A stretch of DNA of 9,804 bases, taken from positions 1-9,804 of the IMG/VR virus record IMGVR_UViG_2531839446_000025. One strand, 5' to 3'. A program made the position numbers. Shown here piece after piece: positions 3,001 to 6,000 of the stretch. This stretch comes from a virus. Lineage: Duplodnaviria; Heunggongvirae; Uroviricota; Caudoviricetes. How positions within the stretch are numbered: position 1 is the stretch's first letter; every line of letters begins with the position of its first letter.

Positions 3001-6000
3001 CCGGCAAGAGTCAGTAATTGTCCCTGGTCTTCCTGCAGAACAGTCAGGCGACCACCGCGATTGACATACATCGGCGTTTCGGTGGTGTCTTCTTCGGAAA
3101 TTTTCCCGCGGTTAGTCGGGCGAACATATGAGAGTTTGTGTTTGATTTTCACACGGTTCTCATCAAATGGTTCGATTTCCAGGTTGAGTGAGACCTTACC
3201 TTTGGTTTTCGTGTTCATCACACCGGAAGCGACTTCACTGAGAACTGCGCCGATTTTGGTTTCAAATACGCCGCCGTCCAGCTCCCCGATAAATGCCTGC
3301 ACATCAGTACTGCGTTCGCTAGCCATTTTGCTGTTCCTCATCATATCGACCCTGCAAGGTCGGTTGGTTTCTCCACAAAACAGAGAAGAACACCTGCGGT
3401 GGCAGCCGCCCGGATGGATTGGGTTATGAGCCCGTCGTCCGGTGATGCTCTTCTCTGTTTTGTAAAAAGAGCGGTACCAGCCGGAAGCAAGTGTACAAAC
3501 TGGTACCGCCAAAGCAGTGGCTGTTGTGGTGGGGTTGTCACTCAGGCGTATGGTCAACCTGACAATCCGGTGTCCTCAACGGGGAAAGAGTAACCCCGCC
3601 ATACTTACCGCCGCGCCATTTCGCGGATTACCACAACGCTGAGAGCACTTAGCCAGTTACGGCACCACACTTTGTCGCGGCTCCATAAATGCCCTCATCG
3701 TTGCACCCTGGTCTCTTCCCAGGCGTCAAACCGAATCGCCACGCTGGTTAGGCGTCTTATCAGCATCATCATTGACTTGCACATTCCGGCTACCTGGTTT
3801 GTTTGCCCGAGCAAGGAGTGGATTGTCCCCTTTAACGTCCCCAGACCGCTAACGACGCATGTGCCATACGCCGTGTTACAACCAAATTTTGTTAGTACCT
3901 TGTTTGTTTGTCTGGAAAGAAAGATAAAATGAAGTTGCGCATTATGCAAGTGTTTTTGTTGCGAGATATGCAATTTAAAGGGTAATGAAAAGCCACCTTT
4001 GGGTGGCTAATTGATGAGGAGGTAAGGGTTAATTGTGTCGCTTAAGGGTTTGTGACTGGCTGATTAAGACCTTTCCAAAGACCATAAACCGGTGTTCATT
4101 TTCGCTGGTAATTCCCCATTCACGGTAAATCTGGTTATCAGAAATCACCAGTAGTTTGTCAGGTATCATTTGCAGTCGTTTGACATAAATTTTATCATCA
4201 AAACCAAATACATAGATACCATCTCCATCAAACTGATTGATACTGACATCAACGAAGATGAGATCTCCTGGCTCAATGGTTGGACACATACTGTCCCCAC
4301 GAACGTTGATAACTTTAATGTGATTGGCTGGCCGTCCGCCAAACATCGATACAGCATTATCAGTTCTGTATTCAATGGCATGAATCACATCAATGACATC
4401 ACCGCCCTGGATAAGGCCATTTCCCGCACTGGCACTGACATCCAGCATTTCAATACGGAATACATCCTTCACCTGCGCAACATCCTCACTAATACTGTTT
4501 TTACATACAGTATTACTTTTGACGTCTGAGGTAAAGAGATCAGCAATATCAACACCTAAGCTCCTGGCAATATTACTCAGGGCTTGTTCAGTGAATTGTT
4601 TCTGCTTACCTGTTTCCAGGCGTGAGATATTCGCCGCATCCACTCCTATTGCTTCAGCGAGATCGGCGATTTTCATGTTCTTCGCCTGGCGAAGTTGTCT
4701 GACTCGGTTTCCTATGTTCATGCGTTTATTACATTTCTTTATTGCGCGTTAAGCAAATCAACTTGCGCAAAATATTTGCGTGAAATAATATGCTCATCAC
4801 GCAATATGTGGAGGTCATATGCAATCACCATTACGGAATGTGCGTAAGGCGCACGGATTTACTTTGCAGCATGTTGCTGCTGGCGTTCAGGTCAATCCAG
4901 CGACGCTGAGTCGTATTGAAAGACTGGAACAAATTCCATCTATCGATCTTGCAGAACGTCTGGCCAATTTTTTTAAGGGTGAAATCAGCGAAATGCAGAT
5001 TCTTTATCCGGCACGTTTTCAATCTAGCCAAAACCAGAATGGGTTTAAACCACAGGAACAGGAGGTAAGCCGTGGGTAATCATCACTGGAAAGTGGAAAA
5101 ACAGCCTGAGTGGTACGTGAAAGCTGTCAGAAAAACTATCGCGGCGTTGCCGGGGGGTTACGCTGAAGCTGCTGAGTGGCTGGATGTAACAGAGAACGCA
5201 TTATTTAACCGCCTTCGTGCCGATGGCGATCAGATTTTCCCGCTGGGATGGGCAATGATTTTACAACGTGCTGGTGGCACTCACTTCATTGCTGACGCTG
5301 TGGCGCAGTCTGCAAATGGCGTCTTTGTGTCTCTTCCTGACGTCGAGGATGTGGACAATGCCGATATTAACCAGCGTTTACTGGAAGTCATTGAACAGAT
5401 CGGCAGTTATTCAAAACAGATTCGTTCGGCAATCGAAGACGGTGTAGTGGAACCGCATGAGAAGACAGCAATTAACGACGAGCTGTACCTCTCAATTTCG
5501 AAGCTGCAGGAGCATGCAGCACTTGTCTACAAAATTTTTTGCGTTTCAGAAAGTAATGACGCCCGCGAGTGTGCAGCTCCGGGCGTCGTGGCGTCGATTG
5601 CTTCTGGTTGTGGAGAAACTAACGCATGAACAGTTTAACAACACACTACCGTCGCTCGCAACTGATTGCGCTTCCTGTACCGGGTGGAAAAGCGAAGGTG
5701 GAGTATTGCTATGCAGTAAATGTACCAGGTGACAGGGAAATTGTAACCCACAGCTTTGCTGAGTGGGCTGTGGGTGATTTCAACCGGCAGAAGGAGACAG
5801 TCCTTTGCGACAAGTTAACCGCTGGTTCAAAGATCACTACGGAGTGCCCGTCAGAGTCATTCGTTGGGAGCCGGAAACACAACGGGTTATCTACCTCCGC
5901 GAAGGCTATGAGCATGAGTGCTTCAGCCCGCTCGAACAGTTTCGTCGTAAATTCAGGGAAATAGAGGTCGGTCATGAGCACTAAATTAACCGGCTATGTA

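Follow-up and report, generated by a model that had tools for sequence, protein, structure and literature searches.

Gene Content and Organization of the Locus

The stretch of DNA analyzed here, referred to as the window, comprises 9,804 nucleotides (positions 1 to 9,804 of the IMG/VR virus record IMGVR_UViG_2531839446_000025, Caudoviricetes) and represents the immunity-replication region of a lambdoid prophage of the e14/SfII/SfIV type. Between the CII-like regulator gene ymfL and an O-like replication initiator gene lie two open reading frames (ORFs) that overlap by approximately 160 bases in different reading frames: ymfM, read in the frame termed A, and a shorter ORF encoding a protein of the DUF4222 family, read in frame B (Table 1). 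Frame B corresponds to frame A shifted by -1, frame A thus being +1 relative to DUF4222. The comparative evidence presented below indicates that these ORFs are probably two real same-strand genes overlapping out of frame.

Both ORFs, the Shine-Dalgarno sequence and TTG start of the second, and its overlap with the O-like gene had been described in an earlier, sequence-only reading of the window and are present at the coordinates given there. The C-terminal portion of YmfM was correctly described in that reading as serine-rich, with residues 61-112 containing 23% serine and 48% serine, threonine, alanine and glycine combined, versus 5% and 27%, respectively, in residues 1-60. The initiator ATG lies in the same frame as ymfM, 9 nucleotides past the ymfM stop and 8 nucleotides before that of DUF4222. 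The two genes in frame A are separated by a single stop and three codons (TAG AGG TCG GTC, ending before the initiator ATG; 5962-5976 including the latter), and loss of this stop would therefore fuse both proteins. At the other end of ymfM, the ATGA junction with ymfL and a GGAG motif 10 nucleotides upstream are kept in essentially all related loci.

Table 1. Features of the immunity-replication region in the window.
Feature	Position	Strand	Remarks
Integrase and excisionase genes	within window
cI-like repressor gene	4029-4721	minus
cro-like gene	4819-5079
ymfL, CII-like regulator	5072-5629	plus	Pfam Phage_CP76, E 8e-14; NCBIfam phage_reg_YmfL, E 5e-50
ymfM Shine-Dalgarno sequence GGAG	5612-5615	plus	sequence reading; context ggagaaactaacgcATGA is the commonest among 224 unique regions
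ymfL stop TGA	5627-5629		overlaps ymfM ATG as ATGA, 5626-5629
ymfM (frame A), 112 codons	ATG 5626 to TAG 5962-5964	plus
ymfM N-terminal module, codons 1-60	5626-5805	plus	portion conserved as protein
TGA closing frame B upstream of the DUF4222 start	5775-5777	plus
DUF4222 Shine-Dalgarno sequence AAGGAG	5791-5796	plus	8 nt ahead of TTG; sequence reading
DUF4222 gene (frame B), 59 codons	TTG 5805 to TAA 5982-5984	plus
ymfM C-terminal tail, codons 61-112 plus TAG	5806-5964	plus	apparently overprinted on DUF4222
Conserved frame-A stop TAG	5962-5964	plus	inside Shine-Dalgarno region of the O-like gene; formed by rare ATA codon 53 of DUF4222 and the next base
O-like replication initiator gene	5974-6915	plus	Pfam HTH_36 and DnaD_N

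Identity and Predicted Structure of the Two Products

The product of frame A matches Escherichia coli K-12 b1148, annotated as "cell division inhibitor YmfM", at 110 of 112 residues, with both differences located in the tail. DNA identity to K-12 is approximately 98-99% over 5560-6010 (mean column identity of 98% in a four-way alignment), and the K-12 gene is flanked, as in the window, by ymfL on its upstream side and by an O-like gene on its downstream side. The 112-amino acid protein was not placed in any Pfam or NCBIfam family and matches only PHROGs of unknown function. In the AlphaFold2 (AF2) model, residues 1-66 form a beta-beta-beta-alpha-alpha domain of moderate confidence (predicted local distance difference test, pLDDT, of 57-67), and residues 67-112 have a pLDDT below 50 without secondary structure and are predicted to be disordered.

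The frame-B protein is identical to the K-12 translation at 59 of 59 residues and is matched over its full length by the profile of Pfam family PF13973 (DUF4222). This match has an E value of 8.6e-19 and a score of 67.3 bits, the gathering cut-off being 27, and aligns protein residues 2-53 to profile positions 3-52 of 53. Its own AF2 model is a small beta-barrel with a pLDDT of 79; Foldseek comparison of this model with the PDB returned only non-significant matches to SH3/KOW/Tudor-like small barrels, the best with an E value of 0.07. The exact YmfM and exact DUF4222 protein sequences are each found on about 1,000 contigs or more.

Conservation of the Overlapping Architecture in e14-Type Relatives

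Twenty-eight related loci were collected from species-representative genomes of Escherichia, Shigella, Citrobacter, Enterobacter, Kosakonia, Atlantibacter, Raoultella, Buttiauxella and Silvania, in which DUF4222 is 70-98% identical, and the addition of about 240 viral contigs gave 224 unique regions of 510 nucleotides. Both frames are kept in all 224 of these e14-type regions, as well as in 65 of 65 SfV-type regions described below. The DUF4222 start position is occupied by ATG in 136, TTG in 68 and GTG in 20 of the 224, preceded by Shine-Dalgarno-like motifs in all three lineage types, and the frame-B stop upstream of it lies between -117 and 0 nucleotides from the start. In every region, the 28 loci included, the open stretch of frame A extends from the coupled ATG as far as +157, +160 or +163 from the DUF4222 start. 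Three different N-terminal modules of 56-60 amino acids are found ahead of the overlap, each of them reading through it. The third frame closes within 11 nucleotides in most loci. The initiator ATG is located at +169 in 218 of the 224 regions, again in frame A, and this holds with a different initiator allele too.

On the opposite strand, a 90-amino acid antisense ORF (minus strand, 5709-5981) spans the overlap. This ORF is open in just 70 of the 224 regions and is therefore regarded as a by-product of sense-strand coding.

Selection on Protein Sequence in Each Frame

The ratio of nonsynonymous to synonymous substitutions (dN/dS) was computed by the Nei-Gojobori method (NG86) within each of the three module types. 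The N-terminal module of ymfM has a dN/dS of 0.12 in type 1 and of 0.29 and 0.37 in the two other types, and DUF4222 is under strong purifying selection within the overlap, with values of 0.02, 0.08 and 0.20. In frame A, the same overlap nucleotides have values of 7.0, 2.4 and 0.9. The dS of DUF4222 (0.11, 1.14 and 0.30) is not below that of the N-terminal module (0.09, 0.57 and 0.36) and, together with the tail dN/dS of 0.9-7, this indicates no detectable constraint from the amino acid sequence of the tail, in agreement with the disorder of this portion in the AF2 model. The sequence-only reading had asked whether one of the two frames would prove conserved as protein along its full length with no counterpart of the other, and the outcome is mixed: the 59-amino acid frame is conserved as a protein, and the 112-amino acid frame is so only over its first ~60 residues, yet is open throughout.

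Maintenance of the Open ymfM Frame

A stop codon in frame A is possible only where a DUF4222 codon of the form NTA or NTG precedes A, or where NTA precedes G. Where valine is followed by A within DUF4222, stop-forming codons are found in 0 of 416 cases (GTY in 416/416; Y, pyrimidine; R, purine), whereas 35% of valine codons followed by C are GTR. Leucine behaves in the same way, with stop-forming codons in 0/72 cases before A (CTY in 72/72) and CTG in 42% of cases before C, as does isoleucine, for which ATA is used in 0/62 cases before A and in 56% of cases before T. The corresponding "forbidden" fractions in the flanking genes are 45% (GTR), 70% (xTR) and 16%, by which a general avoidance of off-frame stops or a codon-pair bias was ruled out.

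This avoidance is also visible as covariation between adjacent codons. Valine 16 is encoded by GTR in 0 of 47 sequences in which the codon for arginine 17 begins with A (AGR or other) versus 26 of 102 in which it begins with C (p 3e-5), and ATA at isoleucine 19 is likewise dependent on the codon for arginine 20 (0/55 versus 17/94, p 3e-4). In tree-aware counts, made by neighbour joining and Fitch parsimony, third-position changes to a purine number 0/17 and 0/11 at the two classes of risk site, compared with 24/47 for sites not at risk (p 8e-5 and 1e-6). The stop at the end of the frame is likewise fixed: in 149/149 sequences, codon 53 of DUF4222 has the form NTA with A or G as the next base (ATA 67, TTA 77, CTA 3, GTA 2), and residue 53 itself varies among isoleucine, leucine and valine although the codon is always the rare NTA. 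Because the initiator lies in the same frame, such that stop loss would fuse YmfM to it, the strict conservation of this stop suggests that frame-A ribosomes reach it.

Random synonymous recoding leaves frame A open in 4-13% of trials per sequence. This null was rejected as a measure on its own since it overstates significance, given the shared ancestry of the sequences and the fact that 28 of 34 Yersinia-type cores (see below) are open under a similar null (mean 12%); reliance is therefore placed on the context-matched codon tables, the covariation, the tree-aware counts and the Yersinia-type control. Taken together, these data show selection against stops in frame A of ymfM, a fixed stop at its end and strong constraint on DUF4222.

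Related Modules and the Probable Origin of the Overlap

A total of 40 unique related regions, one of them from Yersinia phage YeP2, carry the homologue of the type-2 N-terminal module as a stand-alone gene of 53 amino acids. Two ATGA junctions chain the three cistrons: the TGA stop of the module gene overlaps the DUF4222 ATG, and the end of DUF4222 overlaps the start of the O gene. The homologous N-terminal module and DUF4222 are thus found in the same order and frame relationship as in the window; the difference is that the module ORF ends at the DUF4222 ATG, without the long overlap and without avoidance of frame-A stops. Over its whole length, the 53-amino acid YeP2 protein aligns to residues 1-56 of the 108-amino acid type-2 ORF (52% identity, E 2e-15) and therefore stops at the point where the tail starts. 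As a control, these Yersinia-type regions show no avoidance, with 4 of 12 changes at risk sites being to a purine versus 13 of 39 at non-risk sites, and 6 of 34 cores contain stops in frame A versus no interruptions in the 224 e14-type and 65 SfV-type unique regions.

The SfV-type arrangement extends in the opposite direction. In SfV orf37 (1652-2488 of locus L271) and ST64B sb41 (1658-2815 of locus L272), the N-terminal module is followed by the overprinted stretch and by an Ash domain (and Rha). The intact DUF4222 ORF (GTG 1801-1980) is fully nested out of frame, with the Ash/Rha domains beginning only after the overlap, and no obvious internal start was seen in frame A of SfV or ST64B past DUF4222 into Ash/Rha. 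Distant DUF4222 genes are stand-alone and encode about 60-70 amino acids, and a more distant one in phage EKP1 (recorded host Elizabethkingia) is also stand-alone with an intergenic gap upstream. The locations of DUF4222 genes in the window, e14-type elements, YeP2, EKP1 and rgdR suggest that such a gene is commonly found immediately ahead of a replication gene, with SfV and ST64B as exceptions. The rgdR gene (3720-4019 of locus L397; ECs1581 of the enterohemorrhagic E. coli (EHEC) strain Sakai) is directly upstream of a primase gene, which it overlaps by 4 nucleotides.

On the simplest reading of these sequences, DUF4222 would be the older frame and the frame-A stretch would have been overprinted on it, giving rise to the tail in e14-type elements and the linker in SfV-type elements. 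The tail may have arisen in this way once the ATGA stop seen in the Yersinia-type relatives was lost. These phages offer a natural series, from separate ATGA-joined cistrons (Yersinia) through a 52-codon overprinted tail (e14) to a full linker into Ash/Rha (SfV and ST64B), and an overprinted stretch that is open yet free to vary makes a tractable case for studying how and why overlaps persist.

Interpretation and Alternative Explanations

The sequence-only reading had offered a small gene nested out of frame within a longer one as one of three possibilities, and this is the one favoured by the independent conserved start of DUF4222, its Pfam family, the purifying selection acting on it and the maintenance of the other frame. 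Transcripts from the pR promoter would carry cro, ymfL, ymfM and O, and ribosomes leaving ymfL would restart at the ymfM ATG through ATGA coupling to produce the folded N-terminal module of ~60 amino acids. Frame-A ribosomes, which are presumably active as far as the TAG at 5962-5964, would then pass the DUF4222 start and translate 52 more codons until they meet the conserved stop (TAG or TAA), which lies within the ribosome-binding site of O, and could from there restart at O. Separate ribosomes would load at AAGGAG-N8-TTG, make the DUF4222 small beta-barrel and end 8 nucleotides past the O ATG. A premature stop in frame A would strand ribosomes about 150 nucleotides short of O. The tail may thus be kept open for delivery of ribosomes to the replication gene (coupling and avoidance of polarity) or for a needed unstructured C-terminal extension of YmfM, either of which would explain an ORF that is open without conservation of its sequence.

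Several points weigh against this interpretation. The amino acid sequence of the tail is not under purifying selection, leaving stop avoidance and the fixed stop as the only evidence for its translation, and why the tail is kept open is itself inferred. A literature search found no ribosome-profiling or proteomic report for either frame. Because the sequences share ancestry, their raw counts suggest more independence than there is, and 17-28 inferred changes underlie the tree-aware counts. The Yersinia-type DUF4222, although un-overlapped, is still open in frame A in 28 of 34 cores; valine codons in these genes are GTY-biased in every context, and part of the openness is therefore intrinsic. 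Leucine 43 (5931-5933, followed by G) is encoded by CTY in 148/148 and never by CTG, although CTG would give TGG and no stop; leucine 31, by contrast, uses CTG in 59/146.

Some of these points are also what could be expected if only the N-terminal module and DUF4222 matter and the tail is a functionless run-on that followed loss of the ATGA, open merely through inherited DUF4222 codon choice. A tail dN/dS of about 1 or more, its predicted disorder, the mostly open frame of the un-overlapped Yersinia-type genes and the existence of the N-terminal module as a stand-alone protein are all consistent with such a run-on. This explanation is nevertheless considered unlikely, as the same valine, isoleucine and leucine positions take stop-forming codons only where the next base makes them harmless, the tree-inferred purine changes amount to 0/28 at risk sites versus 24/47 elsewhere, and neither this avoidance nor the complete absence of interrupted frames is shared by the Yersinia-type control. 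A terminal stop fixed by rare codons in every sequence likewise argues against a tail of no consequence.

Explanations that join the two ORFs into one protein fare considerably worse. Programmed -1 ribosomal frameshifting, as in IS3 orfAB, dnaX or lambda G-T, would fuse the N-terminal module to DUF4222 in a product of ~118 amino acids, and the -1 relationship of frame B, the Shine-Dalgarno-like AAGGAG upstream of the junction (as in dnaX) and a few fused proteins in public data (P0030, P0053, P0060 and P0065) would fit a translational switch of frame of the kind raised in the sequence-only reading. It is, however, a very improbable account of this locus. No X XXY YYZ heptamer occurs between -60 and +145 in the 224 regions, the sole recurrent one being at +145 in 80 of them, and the absence of a canonical slippery heptamer noted earlier at the window junction (C CTT TGC) was confirmed, with no lineage carrying one at or near that point. 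The predicted RNA fold of 5770-5900 is unremarkable against shuffled sequences (z -0.21), the frame-B stop lies 0 and -3 nucleotides before the ATG in two relatives (loci L033 and L019), the DUF4222 start is conserved as ATG, GTG or TTG with the Pfam domain beginning at residue 2, and the fused proteins are rare, each with a different indel. The ~118-amino acid fused forms make up five small clusters with different indels and 1-14 members each, versus more than 1,800 members in the 112-amino acid clusters, such that the dominant homologues are separate proteins of 112 and of 59-70 amino acids. Less probable still is a pseudogene or artefact, in which a frameshift mutation or a misassembly would have split a single ancestral gene of about 120 amino acids. 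Adjacent out-of-frame ORFs are the expected product of a 1-nucleotide indel, but an identical arrangement of frames is shared by 224 unique sequences that come from numerous genera and assemblies, K-12 MG1655 and phages SfII and SfIV among them, and both exact proteins are present on about 1,000 contigs or more; moreover, DUF4222 is complete within 59 amino acids and stand-alone in distant phages, and no conserved fused homologue was found, the fused forms being sporadic. PHROG 20047 (63 amino acids) was considered as an ancestral short upstream gene and rejected, its members P0063, P0068 and P0077 being 1-nucleotide frameshift variants that run in the third frame to a TAA at ~5816.

Split Annotation of the Locus

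The two genes have been divided between annotation traditions. The K-12 MG1655 and phage GenBank records list ymfM only, and genomes annotated with the Prokaryotic Genome Annotation Pipeline (PGAP) list the DUF4222 protein only, the PGAP entry in a near-identical genome being WP_001250269.1. The K-12 reference contains no feature for the DUF4222 ORF (NC_000913.3, 1204001-1204180; 4002-4181 of locus L005), and the SfV and ST64B records are likewise without a DUF4222 annotation. The comparative evidence that both ORFs are maintained implies that K-12 appears to be short of a conserved small gene and PGAP genomes short of ymfM, which in practical terms bears on annotation and on how a characterized K-12 gene is interpreted.

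Neighbouring Features of the Window

The minus strand at 5556-5590, antisense to the 3′ end of ymfL and the start of ymfM, contains a strong GC-rich hairpin with a U-rich tail after it, and its sequence is identical to that of K-12. In K-12, an abundant antisense sRNA of ~70/116 nucleotides, ECS003, has been detected opposite the ymfM ribosome-binding site by Northern blot (PMC3175480). By analogy, the minus-strand element looks like the OOP RNA of lambda. Inside the O-like gene, 4.3 tandem copies of a 15-bp unit (TCTGACCCGTCAAAA) at 6283-6346 specify a D-[PA]-S-K-S peptide repeat and, like those of the lambda ori, probably represent origin iterons. A RusA-family resolvase gene (7729-8118) is intact in the window, whereas the annotation of the closest complete genome lists it as frameshifted (5230-5620 of locus L001). 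An Rfam scan of the whole window returned no matches, and a promoter and terminator scan of 4700-6300 returned consensus matches at the level of shuffled sequence only.

Function of YmfM and Comparison with Known Systems

YmfM (b1148) of the K-12 prophage e14, the proposed SfiC, is described as an SOS-associated inhibitor of cell division (Ansari et al., bioRxiv 10.1101/2020.11.19.390815). In this preprint, the whole ymfM ORF was cloned in pBAD24 and the whole gene deleted, and the resulting filamentation phenotype was assigned to ymfM (bioRxiv 10.1101/2020.11.19.390815); the preprint version reports no frame-specific mutants and no detection of the protein. Published work treats ymfM as a single gene, however the cloned ORF also holds the Shine-Dalgarno sequence, the TTG start and codons 1-53 of the 59 in DUF4222, which include the whole Pfam domain, and the clone from the original screen held all of DUF4222. 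Since all published clones and deletions of ymfM affect both frames, filamentation is not assigned to one of them. It is conceivable, though not the expected outcome, that the division inhibition ascribed to SfiC stems wholly or partly from the nested DUF4222/RgdR-like protein, in which case the tail would be kept for ribosome traffic to the replication gene and not as protein. The gene for the SfiC division inhibitor, proposed to be ymfM, was sought for 35 years, and the protein nested within ymfM belongs to the family of RgdR, a regulator of EHEC virulence.

RgdR (ECs1581) is a DUF4222-domain activator of LEE (locus of enterocyte effacement) type III secretion, encoded in prophage Sp7/CP-933C of EHEC O157:H7 (PMC3378721, PMC10877973), and its activation of the type III secretion system requires an RGD motif (PMC3378721). 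Such regulatory activity is known for RgdR alone, rgdR being the one DUF4222 gene that has been characterized. RgdR matches the same Pfam family with 82 bits, and the DUF4222 protein of the window shares 41% identity with it over 49 amino acids (E 3e-11). Both are products of small prophage genes located directly upstream of a replication gene, in the case of rgdR the primase gene that it overlaps, and both were overlooked in a reference annotation. RgdR differs in its length of 99 amino acids, with N- and C-terminal extensions and the RGD motif, and in its location on a P4-like element; no RGD tripeptide is present in the sequence of the window DUF4222 protein.

The ymfM/DUF4222 pair is a previously undescribed case of same-strand overlapping phage genes, with no description found in the searchable literature, the YmfM study being covered in its preprint version. 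Same-strand phage genes nested out of frame include Rz/Rz1 of lambda, whose products are known functional partners, and D/E and A/B of phiX174. The likeness to these lies in a small gene with its own Shine-Dalgarno sequence and start inside a longer ORF, both conserved, with DUF4222 wholly embedded in SfV and ST64B; in contrast, the overlapped part of ymfM shows no amino acid conservation, only its openness and its stop being kept, and dual expression is here predicted. Programmed -1 frameshift cassettes, such as IS3 orfA-orfB, dnaX and lambda G-T, also consist of two overlapping ORFs, the second in the -1 frame and with a Shine-Dalgarno-like element upstream of the junction. The window differs from these cassettes in that it is without a slippery heptamer, a stimulatory structure or a conserved fusion, and in that its second ORF has an independent, conserved start.

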